Of a DNA stretch of 64,000 nt, positions 9,609 to 44,081 are shown one piece after another. Source of the stretch: Parcubacteria group bacterium Gr01-1014_8 (GTDB lineage Bacteria; Patescibacteriota; Minisyncoccia; Phycocordibacterales; UBA2100); contig VMGC01000004.1 of NCBI GenBank assembly GCA_007376385.1, positions 32,001-96,000 of the forward strand, given 5' to 3'. Position 1 is the stretch's first letter. Every line of letters begins with the position of its first letter. A program made the position numbers and the translations under genes. Under the pieces are notes generated by a model. It was not told the origin of the DNA. It saw nothing but the letters and a program-made list of their open reading frames with translations, and did no database searches.

Positions 9609-10112
9609 CTACGGCTTGATAGGAATTTCTTGAAATATGTGTTCTGTACCGCTTGGCGCGAATGCGTAGTCTGCGAAGCGTATCCACGTGGGTCGTATCC
9701 AGATAACAGCAGTCTTTTCAGGGTTCAGTTTGGACACGGGCGCAAAGAAATATGGATTGGCGTTGTATACATCCAAGATCTTGCTCCGTGTGCTTTGCAT
9801 GTCAGCGTCAAGAGAGACGTCTTTTGCCATGCCCTCTATTTGTATTGTTTGCGGTACATCTTCTCGCATGACGGTGAAAGCGACCTGCGGGTGCGCCGAT
9901 AGCGATGCATACTTTCGGCTCGAGGGGAGTGTTAGGAAATACACGTTGAATTCATCGTCGGCATAGTAATGAATGGCACTTGCATGCGGAATGTTGTCGT
10001 GTCCTGCGGTAGCAAGCACGCCCGTTTTGTTACGCTTTAGGAATGCAAGGGCATCGGCTCGTGCCGCCTGGTCGCTCATGGTGCCTATACTACCATTTAA
10101 TACTCTATTCAA
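9609..10112 (-). CDS. Pyridoxamine 5'-phosphate oxidase-like FMN-binding split-barrel protein (general stress protein 26-like)
   Basis: 167 aa with a PNPOx-like split-barrel pattern (GVLATAG..., ..VYFLT...). Encoded antisense between atpB and atpE. Confidence 0.65.
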   Translation of the reverse strand: MNRVLNGSIGTMSDQAARADALAFLKRNKTGVLATAGHDNIPHASAIHYYADDEFNVYFLTLPSSRKYASLSAHPQVAFTVMREDVPQTIQIEGMAKDVSLDADMQSTRSKILDVYNANPYFFAPVSKLNPEKTAVIWIRPTWIRFADYAFAPSGTEHIFQEIPIKP

Positions 10113-10117
10113 AGGGA

Positions 10118-10145
10118 TTGAGACGTTGAAATACTGTGCTATTAT
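10118..10145 (+). promoter_or_regulatory. Candidate sigma70-like promoter (TTGAGA - 16 nt - TATTAT) for the atpE-atpC genes
   Basis: -35 TTGAGA at 10118-10123 and -10 TATTAT at 10140-10145. A GC hairpin CCGCGGC-tt-GCCGCGG lies at about 10236-10251 in the leader. Confidence 0.25.
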
Positions 10146-10282
10146 GCCGGCATTCGCATTTTATTGGCGGCGTAGAGCGAGGAAGGGAAAAGCATTCATT
10201 TTCATTTCCGAGCCGATGAGCCAAGATAGGATCGAATACCCCGCGGCTTGCCGCGGCATGAGTATCCTTTATTAATTACTAG

Positions 10283-10525
<243 letters not shown>

Positions 10526-10561
10526 ATCGGCGCACCATAGCGCCGAACGCTTTTTTGGCTC

Positions 10562-11011
10562 ATGTCTGAATTATTCGCAGCTTTTGGCATTAACTGGAAA
10601 CTCCTCTTGATCCAGGCGTTCAATTTCGGCATTTTGCTATTGGTGTTGTGGAAATACCTCTATACGCCTGTTCTGCGAATAATCGATGAACGACGGCAAA
10701 AAATGGCAGAAGGTGTAAAAAACGCAGAAGAGGCCGAAAAAAAACTAGCGTCAGCAGAAAGCGAAGGAAAAGATATAGTATCGAACGCTTCTCGCGAAGC
10801 AGAAGGAATGGTCGTTGCGGCACGAACTCGGGCGGGAGAAAAAGAAGATGAAATTATCAAGGAGGCTGAAAGCAGAGCGGACGTCATACTTCGGGAGGCA
10901 GCCGCGAGGGCGGAAGAAGTGAACCGTCAAATGCTTGCGACAAGCGCTCGTGACATTGCAAAGGCGGCGGTACTCGCCGCGGAGAAAATACTTCGACAAA
11001 AAAACGCATGA
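10562..11011 (+). CDS. atpF: F0F1 ATP synthase subunit b
   Basis: N-terminal TM helix followed by a long charged helix (AEEAEKKLASAESEGK...). Confidence 0.85.
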   Translation: MSELFAAFGINWKLLLIQAFNFGILLLVLWKYLYTPVLRIIDERRQKMAEGVKNAEEAEKKLASAESEGKDIVSNASREAEGMVVAARTRAGEKEDEIIKEAESRADVILREAAARAEEVNRQMLATSARDIAKAAVLAAEKILRQKNA

Positions 11012-30300: not shown

Positions 30301-31353
30301 TTATTCAAGAGTTTTTATTGCGTTTGATTTCGCAGCCCACATCGCGAGATCCCATAAAACTCTCATTCCAACATTTTGATTCCACTCCGAATCTTCTGAC
30401 GGGCTTACTTCGTTGACATCAAAGCCGATAATGGTCTTCCCAGATCCGGCAACGGCTCGTATTAAATACGTGGCTTCTTGGAATTGAAGACCTCCCGGAA
30501 CAGGAGTGCCTGTGTGCGGGCAAAGCGCCGGATCGAGTCCATCTATATCGAGACTGATGTACACTTTTTCGGGCAATTTGCTCGCGATGTCGCTGACGAT
30601 ATTCACCCAGGTGTCGCCGCTGAATTGACGCTCCTTTATGTCCGCGTCGAAAAAAGTCACTATTCTGCCGTTCGAATTCTTTATGATCTCATTTTCGCCG
30701 ATGGAATAATCTCGGACGCCAACCTGTACTAATTTTTTGACTTGCGGCATTTTGAGCGCATTTGTCATTATTGACGCATGAGAATACGTGAATCCTTCGT
30801 ATGAATCTCGTAGGTCGCAATGAGCATCAATTTGGAGAATGCCGAAATCTCCGTGTTTTTTTGCAAGGGCACGCATAAGACCGAGCGGCGTAGAATGGTC
30901 GCCTCCGACGAGTCCCACGAGTTTTCCCCTCGCAAGCAATTCCGATGCCGTTTTCTCGATCCGCGCCATAAACAGCTCGCACCCCTCATTTATGACCGAC
31001 ATCGTATGTCCGTCATTTTTATCGATATCATGTTCGAGGTTTTCGATATGAGCCCTGGCTTTTTCGCGCAGCAAGAGGTTTTCCTTGTACGCGTCACCCC
31101 ACTCCTCGAGAGGGAGCATCGAGATGCCAAGTTTCCACGAATCGTTTCCGTAGCTTTCGTGAAAATAATCAATCTGGGGCGAGGCTTCGTATATTGCCTT
31201 CGGTCCATTATGCGTTCCGCCGCCGTACGAGACCGTGACGCCCCATGGGGCGGGGATAAGCACTACCTGCGAGTCGTCGGGCGAGAATGGGAGACCGAAG
31301 ATGCCTAAATCTTCTCGTCCGACTCCATTTGGATCGAAGTTCTCCCGTTTCAT
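30301..31353 (-). CDS. Ureohydrolase (arginase/agmatinase family); agmatinase suggested by polyamine context
   Basis: Mn-binding motifs GGDHS, DAHCD and SLDIDGLDP. Start taken at the internal ATG (MKRENFDP). Confidence 0.8.
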   Translation of the reverse strand: MKRENFDPNGVGREDLGIFGLPFSPDDSQVVLIPAPWGVTVSYGGGTHNGPKAIYEASPQIDYFHESYGNDSWKLGISMLPLEEWGDAYKENLLLREKARAHIENLEHDIDKNDGHTMSVINEGCELFMARIEKTASELLARGKLVGLVGGDHSTPLGLMRALAKKHGDFGILQIDAHCDLRDSYEGFTYSHASIMTNALKMPQVKKLVQVGVRDYSIGENEIIKNSNGRIVTFFDADIKERQFSGDTWVNIVSDIASKLPEKVYISLDIDGLDPALCPHTGTPVPGGLQFQEATYLIRAVAGSGKTIIGFDVNEVSPSEDSEWNQNVGMRVLWDLAMWAAKSNAIKTLE

Positions 31354-31784
31354 ATTCGCAGAATTATGTGCAGTGTAGCAGAATTTATAGAAGCACACAC
31401 TAGATTGCGGCATCAAAATCAACGCTATAATGGCAATCATGGTTGAACTAGAGCCGGAGCCAAGAGACCGAAGCAGCCTTTCTTGCTGGAAGGAAGAGTG
31501 CGGATAGTACCGATGCGATTGCTGATCAAGCGAGGATGATAACTTTCTTGAAAGGCCGAGCGGAACTTGATCAGAATGTCATTAACCGCCAAAAAGATAA
31601 AATTCAGAGATTGGAAGATAAGCAAATTGACCTTGAGCTAAAAATTAGAGAACTTGAGAGAAAAAATATTGATTAAGGGGTTGTCATTCGAAAATTAGAC
31701 GAAAAATTACGCCAGCTGCAACAATTCCCCCCGACGGCAAATCCTGAGAAATCGATATAATGTGGCGCGTTGCAAAGGGAATTT

Positions 31785-33002
31785 TTACCCCATTCTCGCC
31801 CTAAAGTCTTGGTAAGAGAATTCGCGTATGGGGATCGCCTGGCCGTCTTTCCATAAAACAATACTTGGGTGCTGGACACCATTGAACATGGTGCACTGAA
31901 CGAGGTTGTATTGAATTCCGTCTTCAATGACTATTTTATCGCCTGCCTTTAGAGGTTTTTTAAAGACGTGGTTAAAGGAAAGTCTGTCGCCCGTCAAACA
32001 TGTGCCTCCGCCAAGTCGATATAGATTCTTTGTATTTTTTGGCGTCTCGCTGCGATCGATCTTCGCACCTCGTATTCGCACGTCGTAGTCCGAGCTGAGT
32101 ATGAAATCCGGTGTATGAGCCGAAAACGACATGTCGAGCACCGCGATTTTGTACGGCACATCATCTCGATAGAGGACATCTAATACCGATGCTACGAGTG
32201 TTCCCGCGTTCCAAACGATAGCCGCGCCAGGCTCTAACTGAACACGAACATCGTATTTCTTTTGGAACGTTTTGATAAGCGCAATGATTCCATTTACGTC
32301 ATATGCATCATCGGTAATTTTCTGACCGCCGCCAAAGTTGATCCATTTCATGCCGGGGAAATACGTTGCAAATTTCTCTTCCACAAGAGTTACAGCAGTT
32401 TCTAGTTCGGAGAATTCCTTTTCAAAAAAGATATGAAAATGAAGTCCGCTAATGCCTTCGAGCGCCTTAGGGTCTTTCGCGAGGGCTTCTTTGAATTCGT
32501 TGATACGGATGCCAAGCCGTGAGCCTGGTGCGCAAGGGCTCCATAATCCGCCATGCTCATCGGGCCCCAGATATTCAGGATTGATACGTAACCCGCATTG
32601 TATCTTCATTCCCGTATTTTTTTCGTGTGCCCACACGCGTTCACGAAATTGATACCACTGGCTGAATGAATTAAATACGATGGTATTGCAATATTTCAAC
32701 ACATCCGCAAATTCCTCTTCTTTGTAGGCAGGAGCATACATGTGCACTTCCGACCCGAATTCATCGAAGCCAAGTCTAGCTTCATTCAGCGAACTCACTT
32801 CAGTACCGTCTAAATATTCTTTAGTGATATGAAAGAGGGGCCAGGTTGCCCATGTCTTCAAAGCTTGCAGCATGAAGCAACCCGTCTCGTCTTTCACGTG
32901 TTTCAGTATCGAGAGATTATGTCGAAGTAATTCTTCCTCGATAACAAATGCGGCGGTCTTTATTTTTGACGGATCAAGTGTGGAAGCAGGTCTTTTTTTC
33001 AT
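31785..33002 (-). CDS. nspC: Carboxynorspermidine/carboxyspermidine decarboxylase
   Basis: Fold-type III PLP decarboxylase with NspC-like length (405 aa) and conserved regions. Lies near the CANSDH gene. Confidence 0.8.
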   Translation of the reverse strand: MKKRPASTLDPSKIKTAAFVIEEELLRHNLSILKHVKDETGCFMLQALKTWATWPLFHITKEYLDGTEVSSLNEARLGFDEFGSEVHMYAPAYKEEEFADVLKYCNTIVFNSFSQWYQFRERVWAHEKNTGMKIQCGLRINPEYLGPDEHGGLWSPCAPGSRLGIRINEFKEALAKDPKALEGISGLHFHIFFEKEFSELETAVTLVEEKFATYFPGMKWINFGGGQKITDDAYDVNGIIALIKTFQKKYDVRVQLEPGAAIVWNAGTLVASVLDVLYRDDVPYKIAVLDMSFSAHTPDFILSSDYDVRIRGAKIDRSETPKNTKNLYRLGGGTCLTGDRLSFNHVFKKPLKAGDKIVIEDGIQYNLVQCTMFNGVQHPSIVLWKDGQAIPIREFSYQDFRARMG

Positions 33003-33060
33003 ATCAGCAATGTACTACGTATTCGTGAGAATGCGAGCATTTACAGTGTAGAATTTACCC

Positions 33061-33555
33061 ATGGAAGATAAAACAATTAATGCTTTGCGCTGGATTCTAG
33101 AAATTCTACATAGGAATGAAGTTGAATATCAGATCACAGGTGGTCTTGCGGCCAAAATATACGGATCTCCTAGGCCACTTAACGATATTGATATAGACCT
33201 ATCAGGAAAGTCGTTTCCAACGATAGTGCCTGAAATCTCAGAATATATAACATTTGGTCCCGCTCGTTTTAAAGATGGTAAATGGGATATGGATATGATC
33301 TCACTGAATTATCAGGGGCAGGAGATGGATTTAAGCGGTATAGACAATGATCCTCGCATCAGCAACAAGCCGAGAACAGAGTGGATCCCGTATCTCAGTG
33401 ATATTTCTAAAAAATTGAAACTTGATCATGAGGGAATGGACGTCTGGGTTATGCATCCTCGCGCATTGGCGGCATACAAGAAAGAACTCGACGGCGACCA
33501 CCAATCGATGGACATCGCAGCGGCAGAGAAATATGCCAGCGAACATGGATCGTAG
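33061..33555 (+). CDS. Nucleotidyltransferase-fold protein (minimal NTase, ANT/Lnu-like)
   Basis: GGLAAKIYGSPRPLNDIDIDL matches the hG[GS]...DhDh Pol-beta-type NTase motif. Confidence 0.55.
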   Translation: MEDKTINALRWILEILHRNEVEYQITGGLAAKIYGSPRPLNDIDIDLSGKSFPTIVPEISEYITFGPARFKDGKWDMDMISLNYQGQEMDLSGIDNDPRISNKPRTEWIPYLSDISKKLKLDHEGMDVWVMHPRALAAYKKELDGDHQSMDIAAAEKYASEHGS

Positions 33556-33560
33556 CACCT

Positions 33561-34472
33561 CTACGCTATGAGAAAAGAGCCAATGACCACAAGCAGGATC
33601 CCGGCGCTTTTTTGAATGACGGTTTCCTTCGTGAACACTTCTTCAAGATCGACTTTGAATTTCTGCTGCGCGAACATCGTGATCATAAGCAATATCAACG
33701 GATGGATGACTTTCATCGCAGCGACCTGAGTAACTGTCGCAAGAGTAAGCGCATGCAATGTGAAAAAGATATTCCCATAATCCGCCAGCTTCGCAAGGGA
33801 CGCCCCGCGTGCGTAGGAAAGAGCTCCCTGCAACTGTATACCCTTGCCGGCCCATGCAAAATGTATAGCAAGCATTACTGCGAGAAAGGCGCACATGTAC
33901 AGCATGCCACTCACCAGGAAAGACGCAGGAGAGAGCTCATACTGCTCGTAATAGCTCTTGAAAATATACCCCTCTGAACCGATGACGATCGCATCAAAAA
34001 TCAAGACACCGAGCATCATAAGTATGTATTTGGAATTTGAGAGTCTTTTTGACAGATCCTTGCGTGCAAAGAAGATCAACCCGCCGATAACCAACACTCC
34101 GACTCCGCCTATCTGCATCAACGTAAGCGACTCTTGCCGGAAAAAGATATCTATGGGCAGGAACACAAGGGGAAGAAGCGCGAACGTTACGCTGGCTGCC
34201 GTTATTTCAATGTACTTCAATATCCACGTATAGGAGATCGCTTGTATCGCATATACGAGTCCCCACCAAATTATCGGAAGAGAGAAGATTATCTCAGGCA
34301 CTGATCGGTAGATGAGAAATGCCACAACGATCGCAACACCAAGCACGATAATGTTCCGTATCAACGCGGCAACGAACGTGTCGAGCGTGCTTGAACCAAG
34401 CATCGCCGCTTTATCGATCGTTTCCTCAAGCGTGTTACAGAATATCGCGCCGAGGCTAAAGAGTTGCCACAT
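33561..34472 (-). CDS. DMT-superfamily (EamA-like) 10-TM transporter
   Basis: About 10 hydrophobic helices in two repeats of five. Confidence 0.55.
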   Translation of the reverse strand: MWQLFSLGAIFCNTLEETIDKAAMLGSSTLDTFVAALIRNIIVLGVAIVVAFLIYRSVPEIIFSLPIIWWGLVYAIQAISYTWILKYIEITAASVTFALLPLVFLPIDIFFRQESLTLMQIGGVGVLVIGGLIFFARKDLSKRLSNSKYILMMLGVLIFDAIVIGSEGYIFKSYYEQYELSPASFLVSGMLYMCAFLAVMLAIHFAWAGKGIQLQGALSYARGASLAKLADYGNIFFTLHALTLATVTQVAAMKVIHPLILLMITMFAQQKFKVDLEEVFTKETVIQKSAGILLVVIGSFLIA

Positions 34473-34475
34473 GGG

Positions 34476-35702
34476 CTATATCTTCGCGGGAAGCGGTTTG
34501 TAGTTGATGACCTTATGTGGCAAACCATTTTTTGCAAGTGTCTTCAAGAACGGCTCCGGGTCCAATTGTTCGACGTTCCATACACCTGCCCCTGTCCAAA
34601 AACCTTTCATGACCATCATGGCTGCAATTACTGGCGGTACGCCCGCCGTATATGAGACTGCTTGAGAACCGACTTCGCGGAAGCATTTTGCGTGGTCGCA
34701 GACGTTATAAATGTATTTAGTACTTTCTTTGCCATTTTTTACGCCGGTCACGATACAACCGATGACAGCCTTGCCGCTGTACCCGGTTGCTAGCGATGCC
34801 GGGTCCGGGAGAAGTGCTTTCAAGAATTGAATTGGCACGATAGGTCTCCCTTCAAACATTACAGGGTCAATCCGACTGATGCCAATCGACTCCATGACGC
34901 GAAGATGCGTGAGGTAATTCTCGCCAAATGTCATCCAGAATCGCATTCGTTCAACAGAAGGGAAATGTTTGACAAGAGATTCCATTTCTTCGTGGTAGAG
35001 AAGATAGCTCTCCCTCTTTCCAGCAACAGGATAGTTGAAGGTGAAGTGGGTGCTTTTTGGGTCCATGATCGGGGGGCTCTTTACCCACTTTCCTTTGTTC
35101 CAATGTTTAACCTCTTGCGTAACCTCGCGAATGTTGATTTCTGGATTAAAATTCGTTGCAAATGATTTGCCGTGGCTTCCAGCATTTGCGTCGAGAATAT
35201 CAACGTACTTTATCTTGTCGAAATATTTCTTTGCGATATATGCGATGAAGGCGTTCGTAACTCCAGGGTCGAAGCCAGCGCCAAGAACCGCCATGATGCC
35301 CTTTTTCTTGTAGCGCGCCTGGTATGCCCATTGCCAGCTGTATTCAAAGTGAGCCTCATCGATAGGTTCGTAGTTCGCGGTGTCTATATAGTGGACTCCC
35401 GTTTCGAGGCATGCATCCATGATGGAAAGATCTTGGTAGGGAAGGGCGAGGTTGATGACGACCTCGGGATCTACTTTACGAATGAGCGCCGCTACATCTT
35501 TAGCTTTGTCAGCGTCTACAACATGGGTCTCAATGTCCACCCCCCAGCGTTTTTTTACATTCTTCTGGATTGCGTTCGGCTTTGCTATCGAACGGCTGGC
35601 GAGGTGTATTTTTTTGAATACGTCTTTATTTATTGCGCACTTGTGTGCGGCGACACTTCCGACCCCTCCGGCTCCAATGATGAGTACAGTTCCTTTAGCC
35701 AT
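34476..35702 (-). CDS. Carboxynorspermidine dehydrogenase / saccharopine dehydrogenase family
   Basis: N-terminal Rossmann motif LIIGAGGVGSV and full-length CANSDH-like similarity. Start taken at MAKGTVLIIGAGG. Confidence 0.85.
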   Translation of the reverse strand: MAKGTVLIIGAGGVGSVAAHKCAINKDVFKKIHLASRSIAKPNAIQKNVKKRWGVDIETHVVDADKAKDVAALIRKVDPEVVINLALPYQDLSIMDACLETGVHYIDTANYEPIDEAHFEYSWQWAYQARYKKKGIMAVLGAGFDPGVTNAFIAYIAKKYFDKIKYVDILDANAGSHGKSFATNFNPEINIREVTQEVKHWNKGKWVKSPPIMDPKSTHFTFNYPVAGKRESYLLYHEEMESLVKHFPSVERMRFWMTFGENYLTHLRVMESIGISRIDPVMFEGRPIVPIQFLKALLPDPASLATGYSGKAVIGCIVTGVKNGKESTKYIYNVCDHAKCFREVGSQAVSYTAGVPPVIAAMMVMKGFWTGAGVWNVEQLDPEPFLKTLAKNGLPHKVINYKPLPAKI

Positions 35703-35759
35703 GGTTTCAATTTTATTGTATAGCCGGATGATAGGAGCGATAGGGGACAGCGTCAAGCA

Positions 35760-37595
35760 TCAGAAATTTCCCCACGCTGCCGGATGCCATGGTACTTTCG
35801 TAGAAATTTTTTCGGTCTTTTGCCGAAAGCCGTCATCCTTCATCAATTCTCGAATCGAAGGAAGAGTCTTGGGAGCGTTAGGCAATTTTTCTAGTACATA
35901 TACTTGCACAGGCGTACCAGAGGCAGTCATTTTTTTACGCAAAATAACATTCAGTATCTTTATGCGAGGAGCAATACCGCCTTCGTTGGGTTCTGAAAAT
36001 ATGGATTCGAGAAGCTCTAGTACGGAGGGGTAGACATAACGCGCCTCTATGAATATCTGCCCGTTTGTCGCAAGCCGTTCATAGAGTTCTCTCAAGACTC
36101 TGTCGTATAACGATTGAAATGCAGCTTTGTTTGCTATCTTCTCTTTCATTGCTCCGATCGGCCTGAAAAAAACGGTATCTAAAACAAATCCCCGAGATAT
36201 ATGGTCGTCGATTCTCGCAAGTAGGTTCTTGAGGCTTCCTCCTCTGCCCCGACGGAGAACATCCCCAGGGACAAATTCCAGTCCTGGACGGTGAGTCTGG
36301 GCGACGGCATTGGCATGAGGAGTATCACTTGGATCGATTGCTGTGGCCGCGATCATCGCGTCTTCACCTGCTTCAAATCCTAAATTTCCCTGGCCGAATA
36401 CATCTACGAAGAGGACTTTCTGTTTATTTCCATGTCGCTTTGCAATTCGTTCTTGGATACGTTGCGGAGACGAAAGCCCCCAGAAGGAGAGTTTATCAAC
36501 GCTCTCTTGCGAATTTATCTGTGTTGACCTTTTTACCTCATCTTCAATGTCGTCGGGGCTTCTCGCAAAATACGGAATATTACCCGCGTATGCATCCCAG
36601 TTTTTTTCTTTTAGCTTCTGTGCATCATGCATGTCGTATTTCAAGCTTTCTAACCCGCGGCGCATAACACCTTTTTTTAGGATTTTAAATTTGCGCACAG
36701 GTTTGGTGCGAAGTTTTGCCGTCTCTGAAATATAGTTCTCGTCCACTTGAGAATCTCCTGCTCGGTCGACATATATCTGCCGTTTGTAATAAGGTCTCAC
36801 AGTTTTTATGCTTATCAAATGACCGCCAACAATGGGCGCGTTTGACCCGAGTCTTTCGTCAAGACTAGTCTGGAGAGCGAAAATCTTTTCGGCTTGATTT
36901 TTGATGTTGCCGTTAGGTAACCGTGCGATATCGGCCGTTTTCATTCGAAGGATATAATCTTCATCTGTGAGAACCAAGCCTTCATTGCCTGATGGGAGAA
37001 GTGATTGGTCGGGAGCGAGTACATCGGTCCTACTCAAGTAATCAATGTCTAGTTTCCGAAGACGTTCAACCTCGGCAATTCCGGTGCCGGTTGTTCCATA
37101 ATACGTCGTAAAACCTTTGGTTTTTCCTACCGCGATCCGACTCATTATCGCCGCCAACGTTGTCGAAGCGCTGATTATTGAGTTAAACGAAGGCTCCGAA
37201 AATATCGTTGTATAGAGATCCTTCCCGATACCTTTCTGCTGGTGTTCTTTGCCCACGATAATGTCACGAAGAATCGCGACGGAGGCGTCGCTTGCGTCGC
37301 GCTCGATGCAACAAAATCCGAGTACGCGAGAATCGGAAGTTTTAATGAAAACCTTATCAACGCTCTCGAATGTTATCTGCAATTGTCGCTCAAATTCCGC
37401 TTCATCACGATCGTATGCCTCCTTAATGAGGGGCCAAAACAGATCCTTAAGTTGGACAATGTTCTCGTTCCACATCTCTTTGTCTTTAACGGTAAGGACG
37501 AGACTAGCACTTGAGATATCCATCGAGGCGCCTTTGAAATTCTCAAGCTTTAGTTTGAGCTCATTTGGACAATCACTCCCGATATCCCGTATCAT
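35760..37595 (-). CDS. Multidomain protein: N-terminal GNAT acetyltransferase domain fused to uncharacterised middle region and C-terminal Rossmann-like (GxGxxG) domain
   Basis: GNAT motif A (ILRDIIVGKEHQQKGIGKDLY). C-terminal KVLFVDVFGQGNLGFEAGED resembles a dinucleotide/SAM-binding motif. Confidence 0.6.
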   Translation of the reverse strand: MIRDIGSDCPNELKLKLENFKGASMDISSASLVLTVKDKEMWNENIVQLKDLFWPLIKEAYDRDEAEFERQLQITFESVDKVFIKTSDSRVLGFCCIERDASDASVAILRDIIVGKEHQQKGIGKDLYTTIFSEPSFNSIISASTTLAAIMSRIAVGKTKGFTTYYGTTGTGIAEVERLRKLDIDYLSRTDVLAPDQSLLPSGNEGLVLTDEDYILRMKTADIARLPNGNIKNQAEKIFALQTSLDERLGSNAPIVGGHLISIKTVRPYYKRQIYVDRAGDSQVDENYISETAKLRTKPVRKFKILKKGVMRRGLESLKYDMHDAQKLKEKNWDAYAGNIPYFARSPDDIEDEVKRSTQINSQESVDKLSFWGLSSPQRIQERIAKRHGNKQKVLFVDVFGQGNLGFEAGEDAMIAATAIDPSDTPHANAVAQTHRPGLEFVPGDVLRRGRGGSLKNLLARIDDHISRGFVLDTVFFRPIGAMKEKIANKAAFQSLYDRVLRELYERLATNGQIFIEARYVYPSVLELLESIFSEPNEGGIAPRIKILNVILRKKMTASGTPVQVYVLEKLPNAPKTLPSIRELMKDDGFRQKTEKISTKVPWHPAAWGNF

Positions 37596-37607
37596 GATAG
37601 AAGTCTA

Positions 37608-38036
37608 TTAGCCTTCAAAAAGTAGAATAATTCCAATAGCGGAAAACAGAAAACCAACAGCCTTCGTGATAGACAACGGCTCTTTTAGAAAAATGATTCC
37701 AACAAACGCGACTATCGCAATTGCGACCACTTCCGTCAGAATGCCAGCGACGCTCAGTTGTGCGCCACGGCTATACATAAAGAAAATAGCGAGATCTGCA
37801 ATAGCTATAGAAGCACCTGCAAATAGGGCGGCACCGATGCCATAACGAGTGTACGTTAGATGTCCGTCGTATAAACGATAGAAAAATAAAAGGCAAAGGC
37901 TTACAGCCAGCGCCGACGACGTCATAATAATCACCGCAAGGAGAGGAGAGATTTTTTCGCCGGTCAATTTAGCACCGATGGCGTATCCAGCGGTACCCAG
38001 TGTGTAGAGCACGGCGAATATTTTCCACGACTGCAT
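37608..38036 (-). CDS. Small 4-TM EamA/SMR-like transporter
   Basis: About 140-aa hydrophobic protein with four predicted helices. Start taken at the internal ATG (MQSWKIF). Confidence 0.5.
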   Translation of the reverse strand: MQSWKIFAVLYTLGTAGYAIGAKLTGEKISPLLAVIIMTSSALAVSLCLLFFYRLYDGHLTYTRYGIGAALFAGASIAIADLAIFFMYSRGAQLSVAGILTEVVAIAIVAFVGIIFLKEPLSITKAVGFLFSAIGIILLFEG

Positions 38037-38183
38037 CGCTCCAGTATATACTTCTGTAGCCTTTCGGTTGTCCACACTGTTGACAAAAAGATGCATATTT
38101 TGAAAAACGTGGTATGGTATCGGTCTATCCGAATACTGCAAGAGCGCAACCCGCGCATACGGCATCGGTAAGAAACATCAGAG

Positions 38184-39599
38184 ATGAGCACGGAATCCGC
38201 AACGCCTAAAAAGCGTGCGAAAACAAAAAAGAAAAAGAAGAAAAACGGTTTTAAAAAATTCTGGCGCCTCGGAATGGAGGAGTTTAATACGGGGGGCTTT
38301 GATATTAGTTCCGACGGCGAACTTGTCGCGCGCGAGGGCAATTATCAATACAATATTTTCGATATTGTAAAGAAATACGGCTCTCCGACGGAAATATTCT
38401 TTCCAACCGTCGTTGAGAACCGTGTGCGTGACCTTATCGAGACATTCAACGCGTACATAAAAGTCCTCGGATACAAGGGGAAATTTCACTACCATTATCC
38501 AATGAAAGTGAACCAAAACAAGGAATTTGTCTTACCTGCGGTAGCCGAGGGCTCCAACCTTGATGTTGCATCTGCAAACGAGCTGTATCTGGTAAAGCGA
38601 ATGTTGGAACAGGAAAGGTTCCACAACAAGATGCGCGTCATATGCAATGGTCCGAAAACAGCGCGGTACATGGACCTCATAGAAGAGCTGCGGGGGAAAG
38701 GACTCACGGTCATTCCGATAATCGAGGATCCGGTGGAGCTCGAGCGGATGCAAAAATTCAAAGGTCCTGTCGGCATTCGCGTCGATTTGAACGTTAAAGT
38801 GAAAAGTCATTGGGATAAGAAATTCAACCGCTTCGGCTTTACTGAAGATGAGTTGCTCGACATAGGGAAAATACGAAATCTTTCGGTATTGCACTATCAC
38901 ATTTCAAGCCAAATAGAGCAGATGAACGGATTTATTGAGCCGCTCAAAAGGGCAATTCAACTATTTGCAAAAATGAAGGAAAAGAATCCTGGATTGGACA
39001 CGCTCGATATCGGCGGGGGAGCAGGAGTTCCGTACAACAAGCAAAAGAAATTTTATTCGGGAAAAAGCCTCATTCAAAAGATCGTTAAAACAGCAAAAAC
39101 GCAAGCTGATGCGCTTGGGATAAAGCACCCGAATCTCATCGCCGAGTGGGGGCGTTACGTTGTCGCACCAGCCCAGATGACAATTTACAGGGTCATCGCC
39201 GAAAAGAGCGTGCAAAATAAAGGAGGCAATAAATGGTACGTCGTTGACGGAAGTTTTATGAACGACCTCACTGATACGTGGGCGCTCAAACAGAAGTGGC
39301 ACGTGATACCGATAAACAACTTACATCATCCGAAGTTGGAGCGGGTCTGGTTTGCCGGCAGTTCCTGCGACAGTGATGACAAGTACACTCACGGCGGCGT
39401 TCATGTTTTAGTGCCTAAGTTGTCAGATATAGACGAGCTGTTTGTCGGTATCCTCGATACCGGTGCATACCAGGACTCGCTTGCCTCGCATCATTGTCTT
39501 CTTTCATCGCCTTTGAAACTTATGGCTGCAAACGGCGAGATAAAAGTTGTGCGCAAGAGGGAGACACCAGAAGAGGTTGGGCGTCAGTTCGGGTGGTAG
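38184..39599 (+). CDS. speA: Biosynthetic arginine decarboxylase-like PLP enzyme (fold type III, short SpeA-like)
   Basis: YPMKVNQ PLP-lysine motif and LDIGGGAGVPY glycine-rich motif. Unusual Lys-rich N-terminal tail (PKKRAKTKKKKKKNGFKKFW). Confidence 0.75.
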   Translation: MSTESATPKKRAKTKKKKKKNGFKKFWRLGMEEFNTGGFDISSDGELVAREGNYQYNIFDIVKKYGSPTEIFFPTVVENRVRDLIETFNAYIKVLGYKGKFHYHYPMKVNQNKEFVLPAVAEGSNLDVASANELYLVKRMLEQERFHNKMRVICNGPKTARYMDLIEELRGKGLTVIPIIEDPVELERMQKFKGPVGIRVDLNVKVKSHWDKKFNRFGFTEDELLDIGKIRNLSVLHYHISSQIEQMNGFIEPLKRAIQLFAKMKEKNPGLDTLDIGGGAGVPYNKQKKFYSGKSLIQKIVKTAKTQADALGIKHPNLIAEWGRYVVAPAQMTIYRVIAEKSVQNKGGNKWYVVDGSFMNDLTDTWALKQKWHVIPINNLHHPKLERVWFAGSSCDSDDKYTHGGVHVLVPKLSDIDELFVGILDTGAYQDSLASHHCLLSSPLKLMAANGEIKVVRKRETPEEVGRQFGW

Positions 39600-39784: not shown

Positions 39785-40744
39785 TTGTATATGCCAAGTT
39801 CACCGAAAGTCACGCCGAAAGATTTCTTCCTCTGGGCAGGAGCGATGGTTGCCCTCTATGGGGGAGTCATTTCCTTCGTCACCCTATTATTTCAATACAT
39901 TGATTACGCGTATCCTGATCCTCTTTCCAACTATTCATACAGCGACCCGTTCTCAGGCAGCATGCGGTTTGCTATGGCGACTCTCATTGTGCTCGTGCCC
40001 GTAGCTCTCGTCATCATGCGCTTCATACGCAAAGACATCGCGCGCATTCCTGAAAAAAATGAACTGTGGGTACGACGATGGGCGCTCGTACTCACCGTCT
40101 TTATCGCTGGGGCTGCAGTAGTGGGGGACTCGATCGCGCTCATTAATTCGTTCCTGGGCGGTGATCTTACGACTCCATTTCTTCTCAAGGTTGTTGCGCT
40201 TCTTCTCGTTGCCGGTGCCGCATTCTTGCATTTTCTCGCTGACTTGCGTGGATACTGGACGGCAAATCGGGGACGGGCACAGATGGTCGGTTACGGAGCA
40301 GGAACCGTTGTACTTCTTACCGTCGTCGCAGGATTCTTCATCATGGGAACGCCGGGCGATGTGCGATTGATGCGTTATGACTCGCAAAAAGTGACTGACC
40401 TCCAGAACATACAATGGCAAGTGGTGAACTATTGGCAACAGAAACAAATGCTCCCGACAGCATTATCGCAACTTGAGGATCCTATCTCTGGTTGGAAGGC
40501 ACCGCTCGATCCAGAGGACAAGAGAGAGTATACGTATGAGAAAACAGGCGATATGTCTTTCAAACTCTGCGCGGAGTTCAACTTCGAAGTCACCGAAGAA
40601 ATGAATGGGGTGAAGGTTGCATATCCGGAATACGGCGTTAGTACGGACAATTGGCTGCATGGGCAGGGTGAGCACTGCTTTGACCGAACTATCGATCCGG
40701 ACCTGTATCCAGTCTATCCCAAAGGCGTTCCCATCCGCGAGTAA
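39785..40744 (+). CDS. Hypothetical membrane protein (about 5 TM, DUF-like)
   Basis: Hydrophobic N-terminal two-thirds and a soluble C-terminal domain. Confidence 0.5.
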   Translation: MYMPSSPKVTPKDFFLWAGAMVALYGGVISFVTLLFQYIDYAYPDPLSNYSYSDPFSGSMRFAMATLIVLVPVALVIMRFIRKDIARIPEKNELWVRRWALVLTVFIAGAAVVGDSIALINSFLGGDLTTPFLLKVVALLLVAGAAFLHFLADLRGYWTANRGRAQMVGYGAGTVVLLTVVAGFFIMGTPGDVRLMRYDSQKVTDLQNIQWQVVNYWQQKQMLPTALSQLEDPISGWKAPLDPEDKREYTYEKTGDMSFKLCAEFNFEVTEEMNGVKVAYPEYGVSTDNWLHGQGEHCFDRTIDPDLYPVYPKGVPIRE

Positions 40745-41043: not shown

Positions 41044-41127
41044 ATGAAGAGATACGATCATCGCAAAATTGAGAAAAAATGGGCCTCCTTCGCTAAGGCT
41101 ACGGACGGGCAAACAGCAGAAGTATGA
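41044..41127 (+). other. Upstream ORF (27 aa) mimicking the LeuRS N-terminus, stop overlapping the leuS ATG (ATGA)
   Basis: Encodes MKRYDHRKIEKKW..., versus LeuRS MKSYDHKRIERKW... Its ATG sits in the loop of a 10-bp perfect hairpin (41029-41058). Confidence 0.3.
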
Positions 41128-44081
41128 AAAGTTACGATCATAAACGTATAGAACGAAAGTGGCAGGCACGCTGGAAGAAATCGAAGCTGTACAAGACTGC
41201 CGATACGGTAAAAGGTAAGAAAAATTATTATTTGCTAACTGAATTTCCGTATCCGTCTGGCAATTTGCACGTCGGACACTGGTACGCTTTTTCTGTACCG
41301 GACATTTTAGCAAGAGCGCTCCGCATGCAAGGCAAGAATGTGATGTATCCGTTCGGCTTTGATGCATTCGGATTGCCTGCGGAAAACGCAGCCATAAAAA
41401 ATAAGTTGAATCCTCGAAAATGGACCCTCGGCAACATCAAGTACATGAAAAAACAGATAACCTCGATGGGTGCATCGTTTGATTGGTCTCGAGAACTCGC
41501 TACGTGCGATCCTGAATACTACAAGTGGACGCAGTGGCAGTTTTTGCAATTTTTTAAGGCAGGACTCGCATATCGAAAAGAGACAGCAGTCAATTGGTGC
41601 CCTTCGTGCAAGACAGTGCTTGCGAACGAGCAGGTAGTGGATGGAAAATGCGAACGATGCGGAACGGAAGTGATTCAGAAGCAAATGCTTCAATGGAACT
41701 TAAAAATCACCGACTATGCGGACCGTCTTATTGACGATTTGAGCACGCTGGATTGGCCTGAACAGATAAAGGAATCGCAGAAAAATTGGATAGGACGTTC
41801 TGAAGGCGCCGAGATAGATTTCAGGCTCACAGGAAATGTAGGCGATGACTCACGGTATCTGATCCTCCACGGCAGAGAAGGGAAGCCCACGAGCGTCTTT
41901 ATTCCATGGCTCAAAGAAGAACTGGAAAAAGCTGGACATGAAGTGGAAGTGCCACAGCTTCCCAACACGAATGAACCGAATGCATATGAACAGGCAGAAT
42001 ACATCCTCAAGAACTGCACCGTAGATGAAAAAACAGTTGTGATAGGCCACTCGATAGGAGGAGTTACAGCGCTGCGTCTCTTGGAGAAGGGCGCAAAGGT
42101 TAGGCGCGTTATATTGGTCGCGACACCGTACTCAGGAAGATTTTTGGATGGTAAGAAACGGCCGAGCGTCACAGATTCCGTGAAGAAGGGGTTCGATTTC
42201 GAGACGATACGGAACAATACAAAGAGCATCATTGTTATGCCGGATGTAAAAGATGACAGAGTTCCATTTTCCGACGCCGAGAGCTATGCGCAGAAACTGG
42301 CCGGGATGCTGGTCCATGGCAGGGGAGAGGAGAAGCATTTTATGGGTAAGATAGAGCCGGATGTATTGATGTGCCTTTGCCCCACTATCCGCGTTTTTAC
42401 GACGCGAGCCGACACGCTTTTCGGGGCGACCTACATGGTCTTGTCCCCGGAACATCCATGGGTACGGTTAGCGATAGATGATGATCACAAAGTTTTAGAA
42501 AATAAGGATGAGGTAAAGGAATACGTCACAGCGGCGAATAAAAAAACTGAGCTGGAACGCCTCACGGAACAAAAAGAAAAGACCGGGGTGAGGCTGAAAG
42601 GCGTTGAGGGAGTAAACCCCGCTACGGGCGAGAAGATACCGATATTCGTAGCAGACTACGTGCTTGCGCACTACGGGACAGGGGCCATCATGGCGGTCCC
42701 GGCGCACGATGAGCGCGACTTTGCATTTGCCAAGAAATTTGAGCTGCCGATACGAGATGTGATCTCTACTGGAAAGATGGAATCCGGCGTGTTCGCAGGA
42801 GAAGGAGTGTTGGTGAATTCCGGCGCGTTCAATGGGCTAAAAAGTATCGAGGCTAAGAGCACGCTCACCGATAAATTTGGCCGCAGTAAAATCACGTACA
42901 AACTCCGCGATTGGATAGTTTCGCGCCAGCGTTACTGGGGAGTTCCAATACCCATCGTCCACTGCGAAAGGTGTGGAGACGTCGCTATTCCTGATCCACA
43001 GCTTCCCGTTACATTGCCGGAAATCAAAGATTATTTGCCAACCGGAGACGGAAAATCGCCTCTCGCAAAAGCCAAAAAGTGGGTCAAAGTGAAATGTCCG
43101 CAGTGCAAAGGGACGGCAGAAAGAGAAACAGATACTCTCGATACGTTCGTCGATTCATCCTGGTACTTTTTGCGGTACGCGGACACAATAAACAAAAAAA
43201 AGTTTGCCGATATGAAAAAGATGGATGCATGGATGCCGGTAGATCTCTATTCCGGAGGAGCAGAACACACAACGATGCACCTCCTCTATTCTCGCTTCTG
43301 GCAGAAGGCGCTCTACGATCTAAAGCTCGTTAAGGACAGCGAGCCGTACACGCGAAGGATGAATCGTTCCATCATTCTTGGTCCAGACGGGCAAAAGATG
43401 TCGAAATCCCGAGGCAACGTGATAGACCCGGATGCTGTTGTCGCGAAACTCGGCGCAGACACCGTGCGTATGTACCTTGCCTTCATAGGTCCGTATAATG
43501 AGGTTTCGAACTATCCGTGGAATCCGGATGGTGTGGTAGGTATTCGCCGTTTTCTCGAGCGTGTTTGGCGCCTCCGCGACCGACTTACGATATCGGTCAA
43601 GAAAAGTGACGGACATACGATATCGAACATCGAACGGATGCTGCATGTAACGATTAAAAAGGTGGGGGACGATATCACTGCCCTGAAATTCAATACTGCC
43701 ATCGCGCAGATGATGTCGTTTATGAACGAAGCAGAGAGTAAAGGGATCACAAAGGCGCAATACGAGACACTGCTTCGGCTTCTTGCCCCGTTCGCTCCTC
43801 ATATTGCAGACGAACTTTGGAGCATGATGGGACACAAGAAGTCGGTTCATATTGAAAAATGGCCCGCATTCGATCCGCATAAACTCGCGTCGTCGTCGTT
43901 TACAATTGCGGTACAAGTGAATGGCAAGACACGAACTCAAATCACCATACCTGCTGCAGTGAAGGAAGACGCCGTGAAGGAACAGGCTGAAACAGCTGCA
44001 GGAAAATGGTTGGAGGGAAAGGCTATAAAAAAGATCATCTACGTGCCCGGCCGCATCGTCAACATCGTCGCGGGCGAATAG
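41124..44081 (+). CDS. leuS: Leucyl-tRNA synthetase with inserted YdeN/RBBP9-like alpha/beta-hydrolase domain
   Basis: HIGH motif (HVGHWY) and KMSKS; CP1 editing motifs TTRADTLFGATY and GTGAIMAVPAHDERD. A roughly 185-aa insertion at aa 236-420 has YLILHG...GHSIGG... Confidence 0.9.
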   Translation: MKSYDHKRIERKWQARWKKSKLYKTADTVKGKKNYYLLTEFPYPSGNLHVGHWYAFSVPDILARALRMQGKNVMYPFGFDAFGLPAENAAIKNKLNPRKWTLGNIKYMKKQITSMGASFDWSRELATCDPEYYKWTQWQFLQFFKAGLAYRKETAVNWCPSCKTVLANEQVVDGKCERCGTEVIQKQMLQWNLKITDYADRLIDDLSTLDWPEQIKESQKNWIGRSEGAEIDFRLTGNVGDDSRYLILHGREGKPTSVFIPWLKEELEKAGHEVEVPQLPNTNEPNAYEQAEYILKNCTVDEKTVVIGHSIGGVTALRLLEKGAKVRRVILVATPYSGRFLDGKKRPSVTDSVKKGFDFETIRNNTKSIIVMPDVKDDRVPFSDAESYAQKLAGMLVHGRGEEKHFMGKIEPDVLMCLCPTIRVFTTRADTLFGATYMVLSPEHPWVRLAIDDDHKVLENKDEVKEYVTAANKKTELERLTEQKEKTGVRLKGVEGVNPATGEKIPIFVADYVLAHYGTGAIMAVPAHDERDFAFAKKFELPIRDVISTGKMESGVFAGEGVLVNSGAFNGLKSIEAKSTLTDKFGRSKITYKLRDWIVSRQRYWGVPIPIVHCERCGDVAIPDPQLPVTLPEIKDYLPTGDGKSPLAKAKKWVKVKCPQCKGTAERETDTLDTFVDSSWYFLRYADTINKKKFADMKKMDAWMPVDLYSGGAEHTTMHLLYSRFWQKALYDLKLVKDSEPYTRRMNRSIILGPDGQKMSKSRGNVIDPDAVVAKLGADTVRMYLAFIGPYNEVSNYPWNPDGVVGIRRFLERVWRLRDRLTISVKKSDGHTISNIERMLHVTIKKVGDDITALKFNTAIAQMMSFMNEAESKGITKAQYETLLRLLAPFAPHIADELWSMMGHKKSVHIEKWPAFDPHKLASSSFTIAVQVNGKTRTQITIPAAVKEDAVKEQAETAAGKWLEGKAIKKIIYVPGRIVNIVAGE

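Follow-up and report, generated by a model that had tools for sequence, protein, structure and literature searches.

A GNAT acyltransferase module fused to a methyltransferase-like domain within a polyamine gene cluster of a Parcubacteria bacterium

The 64,000-nucleotide stretch of DNA analysed here (the window) carries, within a polyamine gene cluster, a 611-aa ORF that is well supported as a genuine two-module fusion protein of a CPR (Parcubacteria) bacterium: an N-terminal GNAT acyltransferase module (N-module) is linked to a C-terminal module with a methyltransferase-like fold (C-module) (Table 1). The conserved component of the cluster is the GNAT module only; the C-module is a facultative add-on in the lineage of the query. 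Architecture, fold class, synteny and the facultative nature of the C-module are the established parts of this account. The product is identical to the database entry “hypothetical protein G01um10148_806” of Parcubacteria group bacterium Gr01-1014_8, and the full-text literature that we searched contains no description of such a family or of the fusion. The novelty of the fusion is modest: it offers a lead on polyamine modification and does not amount to a new kind of system.

Table 1. Coordinates of the fusion gene, its parts and the neighbouring genes in the window.
Feature	Residues	Position	Strand	Basis
Whole ORF, 611 aa, fusion of N-module and C-module		35760..37595 (including stop codon)	−	ATG start, ORF listing
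N-module: GNAT core to about residue 170, family-specific extension about 170-265	1-265	36801..37595	−	phmmer, alignment A1, Pfam, PDB profile search
Pfam Acetyltransf_1 (PF00583) match	52-131	37203..37442	−	24.8-26.8 bits against a cut-off of 20.7
GNAT motif A region VGKEHQQKGIGKDLY, Q119-x-x-G122-x-G124	114-128	37212..37256	−	Family alignment
Linker, poorly conserved, beginning with the junction motif RPYYKRQIY	266-330	36606..36800	−	phmmer, BLASTP against P0008
C-module: divergent class I methyltransferase-like Rossmann fold	331-611	35763..36605	−	Predicted structure, fold comparison
β1 and glycine-rich loop KVLFVDVFGQGNLGFEAGED, family motif D-x-x-G-Q-G-x-x-G…G-x-D	393-412	36360..36419	−	Alignment, secondary structure
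FFRPIGA, right after β4, at the methyltransferase motif IV position	476-482	36150..36170	−	Alignment, secondary structure
Half-size EamA/DMT transporter gene, adjacent on the upstream side, spacer of 12 nt		37608..38165	−	PF00892, 28.6 bits
CANSDH/CASDH-like dehydrogenase, directly downstream		34476..35756	−	Sacchrp_dh domains; NF043000 389 bits, under the 800-bit cut-off
NspC-like carboxy(nor)spermidine decarboxylase		31785..33002	−	TIGR01047, 401 bits against a cut-off of 409
Agmatinase-family ureohydrolase		30301..31440	−	Profile matches
Short alanine-racemase-fold arginine-decarboxylase-like gene, divergent		38184..39599	+	Profile matches

The two-module architecture emerges from homology searches. 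Word-index searches gave a self-match or a handful of members, and an exhaustive HMMER search was needed for both families. Exhaustive phmmer yielded 52 matches to the 611-aa query, with two sets of standalone proteins, one aligned with query residues 10-265 only and the other with residues 330-590 only. The standalone counterparts of each module are about 270 aa long (260-300 aa for the N-module homologues), and no standalone homologue in this search spans the linker. The ORF and both motifs quoted in the original prediction are present, but the middle of the protein, which had been taken as one unrecognised block of about 250 residues, comes apart into the rest of the N-module (about 135-265), the linker (about 266-330) and the C-module from about residue 331. 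As for the same fusion in other genomes, one more was found: P0008, a divergent protein of 647 aa from a different assembly, colinear with query residues 175-586 (E 3e-44 to 7e-45) and sharing with the query, by BLASTP, the motif RPYYKRQIY at the start of the linker. At the locus of P0008 (L008), a half-size EamA orthologue of the 50-67% identical group lies upstream, with two small ORFs in between. The N-terminal half of P0008 was considered as a recognisable GNAT, which could not be established (hhalign probability 3%); with the GNAT core undetectable in P0008, the two activities are therefore not co-conserved. We also considered a foreign composition of the C-module, which is not evident from its GC3 (0.43 versus 0.45-0.59 in neighbouring genes).

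The location of the gene within a polyamine cluster, as originally proposed, is borne out by the CANSDH-like, NspC-like, agmatinase-like and arginine-decarboxylase-like genes around it; bacterial polyamine pathways are still under revision, those of CPR included (PMC10599626, PMC13625781, PMC10407285). Orthologues suggest that the true start of the half-size EamA gene is near M45. PADLOC defence models gave no matches, Rfam found nothing inside 28-42 kb, and promoter-like and terminator-like sites are not enriched over shuffled sequence.

Standalone N-module genes occupy the same operon slot (half-size EamA, then GNAT, then CANSDH) or adjoin other polyamine genes in six of the eight informative loci. 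The closest syntenic cluster, L017 (Ca. Kaiserbacteria), keeps the gene order of the window around its standalone N-module gene (9953-10786), and its flanking proteins share 71-93% identity with those of the query locus. The order is ArgDC / EamA-half / N-module / 154-aa ORF / CANSDH in L007 and EamA-half / P0011 / 285-aa ORF / CANSDH / NspC in L012; half-size EamA orthologues, 50-67% identical, adjoin the N-module gene in these three loci and in L002. At L001, the N-module adjoins ArgDC-agmatinase-CANSDH-NspC, and at L006 it adjoins a deoxyhypusine-synthase homologue and an agmatinase, a type of cluster known for homospermidine production (PMC13625781). No polyamine genes lie within about 8-10 kb of the distant N-module members at L018 (39% identity) and L015/L016 (27%). 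The C-module is absent from L017, where no remnant is left, as well as from L001, L006, L007 and L012; unrelated orphan genes occupy its slot in L007 and L012. Standalone C-modules are found after lepA, beside GT2 and peptidoglycan-binding genes, and flanked by a pilB-type ATPase fragment on one side and, on the other, by a start resembling PilC when judged by eye. The linkage to polyamine genes holds for the GNAT module only and not for the C-module. Among candidate split partners, the ORFs following the standalone N-modules (154 aa in L007, 285 aa in L012) and the genes preceding standalone C-modules (L009, L011) were rejected, none being the missing module.

Our main explanation, to which we give about an even chance, is an acyl-CoA-dependent N-acylation of polyamines coupled to the adjacent transporter, with an added methyltransferase-fold domain. 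The N-module would most likely N-acylate (probably acetylate) a polyamine or a pathway intermediate, the adjoining half-size EamA/DMT transporter would probably take care of the acylated product, and the two could form a homeostasis or export pair like blt-bltD of B. subtilis; the C-module would be fused on as a facultative extra, its cofactor probably being SAM or a related nucleotide. The function is inferred from gene context; acyl-CoA and a polyamine as substrates, a link with the transporter and the use of SAM are likewise inferences. An unannotated GNAT family with a half-size DMT transporter recurs as an accessory in the polyamine operons of CPR, and this pairing may point to a layer of acylation and export in the polyamine homeostasis of CPR. 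The fusion, for its part, is a hint that the GNAT family and the methyltransferase-fold family can work together.

The close pairing of a small GNAT gene with a gene for a membrane exporter, in connection with polyamines, has a precedent in the blt-bltD operon of B. subtilis, which combines an efflux transporter with a GNAT spermidine/spermine N1-acetyltransferase (PMC11808394), and MdtJI is a spermidine exporter (PMC11998418). Both blt-bltD and E. coli SpeG with MdtJI resemble our locus in combining a GNAT gene with an exporter gene and in the proposed logic, which is to acylate and/or export excess polyamine. Blt is an MFS transporter and MdtJI an SMR pair, whereas the transporter of the query operon is a half-size EamA/DMT protein. 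Furthermore, the N-module falls outside the SpeG, SSAT, PaiA and BltD sequence families and has an additional extension of about 95 aa, the GNAT-transporter pair lies within a biosynthetic operon, and a methyltransferase-fold domain is fused on in the genome of the query.

One may instead read the protein as an obligate bifunctional enzyme, both domains acting sequentially on the same polyamine, for example by N-acetylation then N-methylation, before the transporter exports the product. Two catalytic-looking modules in one chain within a polyamine operon, the recurrence of the fusion in P0008, conserved residues of active-site type in each half of the query, and structural neighbours of the C-module that include the small-molecule N-methyltransferase NodS (its top Foldseek match) and spermidine/spermine synthases would all fit. 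We nevertheless hold it unlikely, given the absence of the C-module from L017 and the four other loci, the non-polyamine contexts of standalone C-modules and the undetectable GNAT core of P0008. The suggestion in the original prediction that the protein acetylates and then methylates a polyamine is thus possible for the query itself, but is without comparative support, since only the GNAT module is conserved in the cluster and the C-module is missing from L017. The specific outcome of a doubly modified polyamine (e.g. N-acyl-N-methyl), exported by the co-transcribed half-size DMT transporter, appears quite unlikely to us. If the bifunctional reading were true, CPR episymbionts would have a secreted or surface polyamine derivative, and the N-module family would be a previously unrecognised module of polyamine modification and export across Patescibacteria. 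It is also unlikely that the protein acts, by acetylation and methylation, on a macromolecule, be it RNA (tRNA or rRNA) or protein (ribosomal, pilin or other), the position in the operon then coming from the compactness of the CPR genome and not from a common substrate.

Returning to acyl-CoA-dependent polyamine acylation, the N-module is, judging by its sequence, an unannotated GNAT family with an extension of about 95 aa of its own. The predicted GNAT identity of the N-terminus is confirmed, PF00583 exceeding its cut-off in the query and matching 24 of the 26 family members (best E 6.5e-11). Motif A, the acyl-CoA pyrophosphate-binding loop, reads Q119-Q-K-G122-I-G124 in the query; across the 26 sequences, position 119 is R/Q in all, G122 is found in 20, and position 124 is G/A/S in 24. 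Other constants of the family are W42 (26/26), Q71 (25/26) and D/E111 (25/26). The family alignment also has a motif-B-like segment, A149…G161-F162; the single-sequence AF2 model of the whole protein has a pLDDT of 32. A PDB profile search brought 47 matches, GNAT acetyltransferases only, and the first was the diamine-acid acetyltransferase EctA (E 6e-4). With EctA (L-2,4-diaminobutyrate acetyltransferase, PDB 6sjy/6sk1), the N-module shares a recognisable β-strand core and motif A, but only about 60-80 residues align with EctA or the GNAT superfamily, and the long C-terminal extension is without known relatives. DpA polyamine acetyltransferase was matched at E 0.046 and a diamine acetyltransferase at E 0.27; such values (0.05-0.3) are no better than those of the other GNAT matches. 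SpeG, SSAT and PaiA chains are absent among the 47 matches, and no NCBIfam model supports membership of the SpeG, SSAT, PaiA or BltD subfamilies at E ≤ 1.

N-modules of the operon type of the query are 52-59% identical (72% for one pair), compared with 63-93% for the flanking polyamine enzymes; such a divergence rate, much above that of the neighbours, would be unusual for a core metabolic enzyme. This faster divergence could indicate that the GNAT module is not a transferase but binds a ligand in a non-catalytic or regulatory role, for example as a sensor of polyamine or acyl-CoA levels that serves the transporter or the pathway. The same could be said of the apparent loss of the GNAT core in P0008 and of the arginine found at position 153 in 22 of the 26 members, where we presume, having aligned the family by eye with the consensus of GNAT motif B, that the tyrosine general acid would be placed. 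Such a role is nonetheless improbable in our opinion: the pyrophosphate-binding loop is kept family-wide, as are W42, Q71 and D/E111, a pattern typical of an active CoA-binding enzyme.

The C-module represents a family that has neither an annotation nor a Pfam or NCBIfam model, and its fold is like that of class I methyltransferases. Its family homology spans about residues 331-590, and the structure model used for fold comparison was that of the C-module only. The model has a seven-stranded Rossmann-like fold with a β6-β7 hairpin, and methyltransferase-fold proteins sharing this hairpin make up nearly all of its top structural neighbours. With class I methyltransferases (FtsJ/RrmJ/Spb1, NodS, TrmR, KsgA, COMT), it shares the fold, the strand order, the hairpin, a glycine-rich loop after β1 and “GD” after β3; the “LYERL..GG” helix-strand before β5 is like that of many small-molecule methyltransferases. 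Sequence identity to these enzymes is nonetheless 8-17%, with TM scores of 0.3-0.5 and no HMM match: at E ≤ 0.1, Pfam methyltransferase families match none of 24 C-module members, the FtsJ Pfam family has no match in the same 24, and NCBIfam methyltransferase models gave only one chance-level match (E 0.023, a single member). The PDB profile search reached E 0.86, and a search for related loci based on the C-module alignment (A6) was negative in genome contigs and in viral contigs.

The family differs from class I methyltransferases in several details. Strands β1 (residues 393-399) and β2 (413-418) have no predicted helix between them, and the motif I position holds a variant loop, D398-V-F-G401-Q402-G403-x-x-G406, with a spacing unlike (D/E)-x-G-x-G-x-G and a near-invariant glutamine (24 of 25 sequences). 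In the same alignment, conservation amounts to 24/25 for D398, 25/25 for G401, 18/25 for both G403 and G406, 23/25 for G410 and 24/25 for D412. At the end of β2, a position taken from the secondary structure of the model and not from superposition, the acidic ribose-contact residue is replaced by T/S at 418 (25/25), and D/E occurs at 421 in only 10/25. R478 (24/25) and P479 (22/25) stand out in FFRPIGA; R478 and the conserved K570 are the family's own. By alignment inspection only, the K-D-K-E catalytic tetrad of the FtsJ/RrmJ 2'-O-ribose methyltransferases is not reproduced by the conserved D398, Q402, D412, R478 and K570. A putative active site could be formed by the strongly conserved D398, G401, Q402, D412, G444-D445, R478 and K570. 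In this second unannotated family, a methyltransferase-like fold goes with a D-x-x-G-Q-G-x-x-G…R…K signature that is unusual and strongly conserved. The cofactor of the C-module is probably SAM or a related nucleotide, SAM binding itself being putative: the glycine loop departs from the canonical form, and no acidic residue is conserved after β2.

The presence of spermidine/spermine synthases among the neighbours raises the idea that the C-module makes polyamines with decarboxylated SAM in the manner of an aminopropyltransferase, which we find very improbable: these structural matches are no better than those to dozens of ordinary methyltransferases, the Pfam and NCBIfam spermidine-synthase models match 0/24 members, the operon already has the aspartate-semialdehyde (CANSDH/NspC) route, and no polyamine genes lie near standalone C-modules.

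Methyltransferase-GNAT didomains do occur in polyketide loading modules of the AprA and CurA type, which are giant PKS modules with carrier proteins. They resemble the query in having methyltransferase-fold and GNAT-fold domains in one polypeptide and a small-molecule substrate, but their domain order differs, and the query is without ACP or PKS context.

A dehydrogenase domain with GxGxxG as its NAD(P)-binding motif is barely credible, no NAD(P) dehydrogenase being found among the top structural neighbours of the C-module. Equally hard to credit is a fusion produced artificially from two adjacent genes by misassembly or a frameshift: most family members do have separate genes and the protein is known from one MAG contig, but the ORF is uninterrupted, no locus has N-module and C-module genes side by side, and the independent, divergent fusion P0008 carries the same junction motif in another assembly.

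The 611-aa ORF (ATG start; 100% match to a "hypothetical protein" from a Parcubacteria-group MAG) lies, as originally predicted, inside a polyamine cluster: a half-size EamA transporter gene sits 12 nt upstream of it and a CANSDH/CASDH-like dehydrogenase gene directly downstream, together with a full-size EamA protein, an NspC-like decarboxylase, an agmatinase-family enzyme and a divergently transcribed arginine-decarboxylase-like gene. The CANSDH-like gene scores 389 bits, far under the 800-bit equivalog cut-off, and the NspC-like gene falls slightly under that of its model; the arginine-decarboxylase-like gene is short and AR-fold, and the agmatinase-family protein is long (379 aa). On sequence grounds, the pathway of this cluster (30301-39599) may be the carboxyaminopropylagmatine route (CAPADH/CAPADC/APAUH; PMC10599626) instead of the putrescine-based one.

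Coordinates of the 611-aa ORF, its neighbours and related features (L-numbers: related loci in other genomes)
Feature	Locus	Position	Strand
Agmatinase-family enzyme	window	30301-31440	
NspC-like decarboxylase	window	31785-33002	
164-aa ORF, opposite strand within cluster	window	33061-33555	+
CANSDH/CASDH-like dehydrogenase	window	34476-35756	
611-aa ORF	window	35760-37595	-
Variable slot: fused C-module, in frame	window	35763-36800	
Half-size EamA transporter	window	37608-38165	
Short arginine-decarboxylase-like gene	window	38184-39599	
DUF5671 protein	window	39785-40744	+
DUF5671 protein	L017	6935-7873	
DUF5671 protein	L018	6552-7570	
Leucyl-tRNA synthetase, 985 aa	window	41124-44081	+
Arginine-deiminase-superfamily protein, 489 aa	L001	3025-4494	-
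PF04909 amidohydrolase	L004		
PF04909 amidohydrolase	L005		
PF04909 amidohydrolase	L006	2197-2997	
PF04909 amidohydrolase	L018	7572-8378	
P0011 residues 1-295	L012	475-1359	
Variable slot: 154-aa orphan	L007	2332-2796	
Variable slot: 285-aa orphan	L012	2150-3007	
Variable slot: small ORF only	L017	10787-11042	
Conserved 57/61-aa ORF	L017	10826-10999	-
Conserved 57/61-aa ORF	L008	1353-1538	+

Judged by its relatives, the protein reads as two modules, not three parts. In Pfam, residues 52-131 match GNAT marginally and no match lies C-terminal of them, and PDB sequence searches return no match. When 1.84 billion representatives were searched exhaustively with HMMER, 52 relatives emerged, which separate cleanly into two groups: about 30 standalone proteins (220-311 aa) align to residues ~10-265, the N-module, and about 23 (160-300 aa) to residues ~330-590, the C-module; none of them covers residues 266-330. 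Because of this split, the 250 unrecognised residues originally taken as one block turn out to comprise the latter half of the N-module family, a linker of about 65 aa and the start of the C-module. The only other long proteins among the 52 are P0008 (647 aa), with the C-module at its C-terminus, and P0011 (554 aa), with the N-module at its C-terminus, preceded by an unrelated 290-aa region that has neither a precomputed Pfam match nor a PADLOC match; this different partner means that the GNAT module has taken part in more than one fusion.

The GNAT motif A recognised in the first of two peptides (residues 114-128 and 393-412) proved to be a family trait: PF00583 matches 24 of 26 N-module members (best E 6.5e-11), and motif A is conserved (R/Q119 26/26, G122 20/26, G/A/S124 24/26). 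A PDB search with the family profile returned GNAT acetyltransferases only, the best being the diamino-acid acetyltransferase EctA (E 6e-4). Other conserved positions are family-specific (W42, Y61, Q71, G93, A149, R153, P201, G206, Q242); position 153 is Arg in 22/26 members, where a visual alignment with the motif B consensus of GNATs would lead one to expect tyrosine. No match to SpeG, SSAT, PaiA or BltD models was obtained, and a single-sequence structure model of the whole protein reached a pLDDT of only 32. By profile score and motif A, the N-module is assigned to the GNAT superfamily, but outside every characterised polyamine-acetyltransferase subfamily.

Linkage of the N-module to polyamine genes holds at six of eight informative loci. 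In a Ca. Kaiserbacteria MAG (L017), the synteny of the window is kept throughout (DUF5671, ArgDC, EamA-half, N-module, CANSDH, EamA, NspC, agmatinase), with flanking proteins 71-93% identical; the N-module is there a standalone 277-aa gene (54% identity), with no C-module or remnant in the 256-bp gap. The order is ArgDC, EamA-half, N-module, 154-aa orphan and CANSDH in L007, and EamA-half, P0011, 285-aa orphan, CANSDH and NspC in L012; in L001, 1.6 kb separate the N-module from ArgDC-agmatinase-CANSDH-NspC. In L006, it adjoins an amidohydrolase, a deoxyhypusine-synthase homologue and agmatinase, which fits SpeY-type homospermidine clusters (PMC13625781). The linkage is not universal: a Ca. Uhrbacteria locus (L018, 39% identity) has the amidohydrolase-N-module pair and no polyamine gene in 9.8 kb, and the N-modules of L015 and L016 (27% identity) have housekeeping-gene surroundings. 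Operon-type N-modules share 52-59% identity (one pair 72%), versus 63-93% for the flanking polyamine enzymes, and at the DNA level the N-module region is not alignable while CANSDH is, at 76%; the N-module is a fast-evolving accessory.

Two further neighbours deserve mention. In four loci, the N-module gene is immediately preceded by a PF04909 (Amidohydro_2) gene, whose copies are 54-67% identical; this second recurring arrangement suggests a functional pair distinct from that with EamA-half. In L001, an arginine-deiminase-superfamily protein (PF02274, E 6e-19), a putative further guanidino-group enzyme, is encoded between ArgDC and the standalone N-module.

A second, divergent fusion was found elsewhere: P0008, from a different assembly, is 31% identical to residues 175-586 in a colinear alignment (E 3e-44 to 7e-45). 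The C-module and the junction motif K-x-x-RPY-x-x-R-x-Y are common to both, and P0008 too is preceded by an EamA gene. Its GNAT core is undetectable; the simplest reading is a single old fusion event followed by decay of the N-half in the P0008 lineage.

C-module members match nothing in Pfam, NCBIfam, PADLOC or PDB sequences. AlphaFold modelled residues 296-611 confidently from 25 family sequences (pLDDT 78.4, pTM 0.79), with the predicted order α-β1-β2-α-β3-α-β4-α-β5-α-β6-β7, and all 34 Foldseek PDB matches at E<=1e-3 are class I methyltransferase-fold, including NodS, TrmR, KsgA, RsmD/YhhF and COMT; the predicted fold class is therefore secure. The GxGxxG loop of the original prediction exists, after β1, in a methyltransferase-class and not an NAD(P)-class fold. 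Family-wide it reads D398-x-x-G401-Q402-G403-x-x-G406…G410-x-D412 (24, 25, 24, 18, 18, 23 and 24 of 25 for the named residues), and G444-D445 (after β3), R478-P479 (after β4), Y505 and K570 (on β7) are near-invariant; conservation this strong favours a functioning active site over a decayed domain. Non-canonical features are the absence from the prediction of the helix between β1 and β2, a T or S ending β2 in 25/25 members versus the usual acidic residue, and a different motif I spacing. Sequence-family tests do not place the C-module, and one of the canonical SAM-contact features is missing from it; SAM binding is no more than plausible, and placement in any particular methyltransferase subfamily is not established.

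The operon has a variable slot, which follows the N-module gene and precedes CANSDH. Its orphans in L007 and L012 have no Pfam match and no mutual similarity. The 57/61-aa ORF (37 aa aligned at 49% identity, E 1e-7; no Pfam match, not present in the window) is a neighbour of the Ca. Kaiserbacteria N-module gene and lies immediately upstream of P0008. Standalone C-modules have no consistent neighbour: in L009 the copy is flanked by a pilB-type ATPase fragment and by what resembles, by eye, a PilC start; in L011 and L014 it directly follows such a fragment and lepA, respectively; and in L013 it has a GT2 glycosyltransferase on one side and a peptidoglycan-binding protein on the other.

On the best-supported reading, the N-module would use acyl-CoA to N-acylate a polyamine or pathway amine and would work together with the half-size DMT transporter, with which it is co-transcribed; the C-module may methylate that substrate as well, or have an unrelated role. 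The closest analogies are E. coli MdtJI, a spermidine exporter (PMC11998418), and B. subtilis blt-bltD, co-transcribed genes of which BltD N1-acetylates spermidine (PMC11808394). An enzyme obligately acetylating and then methylating would suit the in-frame fusion but is less likely, the C-module being facultative in the polyamine cluster. Also less likely are a macromolecule modifier and a regulatory GNAT; the fast divergence of the N-module and its Arg153 would suit the latter, and the conserved motif A speaks against it. An aminopropyltransferase is improbable: spermidine synthase appears among the fold matches, at rank 30, but scores no better than ordinary methyltransferases. An artefact is hard to reconcile with the uninterrupted ORF and P0008, and in the loci examined no C-module adjoins a standalone N-module; an NAD(P) domain is hard to reconcile with the predicted fold. 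Full-text literature searches returned no description of either family or of their fusion. The fusion should be of moderate interest to polyamine and CPR specialists and is not categorically new.

Inside the cluster, the 164-aa ORF, whose Kaiserbacteria counterpart is 88% identical, has a weak, sub-threshold aminoglycoside-2''-adenylyltransferase match (PF10706, E 0.0023) and so may have a nucleotidyltransferase fold. In three genomes, a DUF5671 protein recurs as neighbour of the cluster or of the N-module; one of them is the Uhrbacteria locus, which has no polyamine genes. The leucyl-tRNA synthetase carries an α/β-hydrolase insertion (PF06821 Ser_hydrolase, residues 245-398, E 5.8e-8) between the start of its catalytic core and the CP1 editing domain (421-584), which is unusual for a LeuRS.
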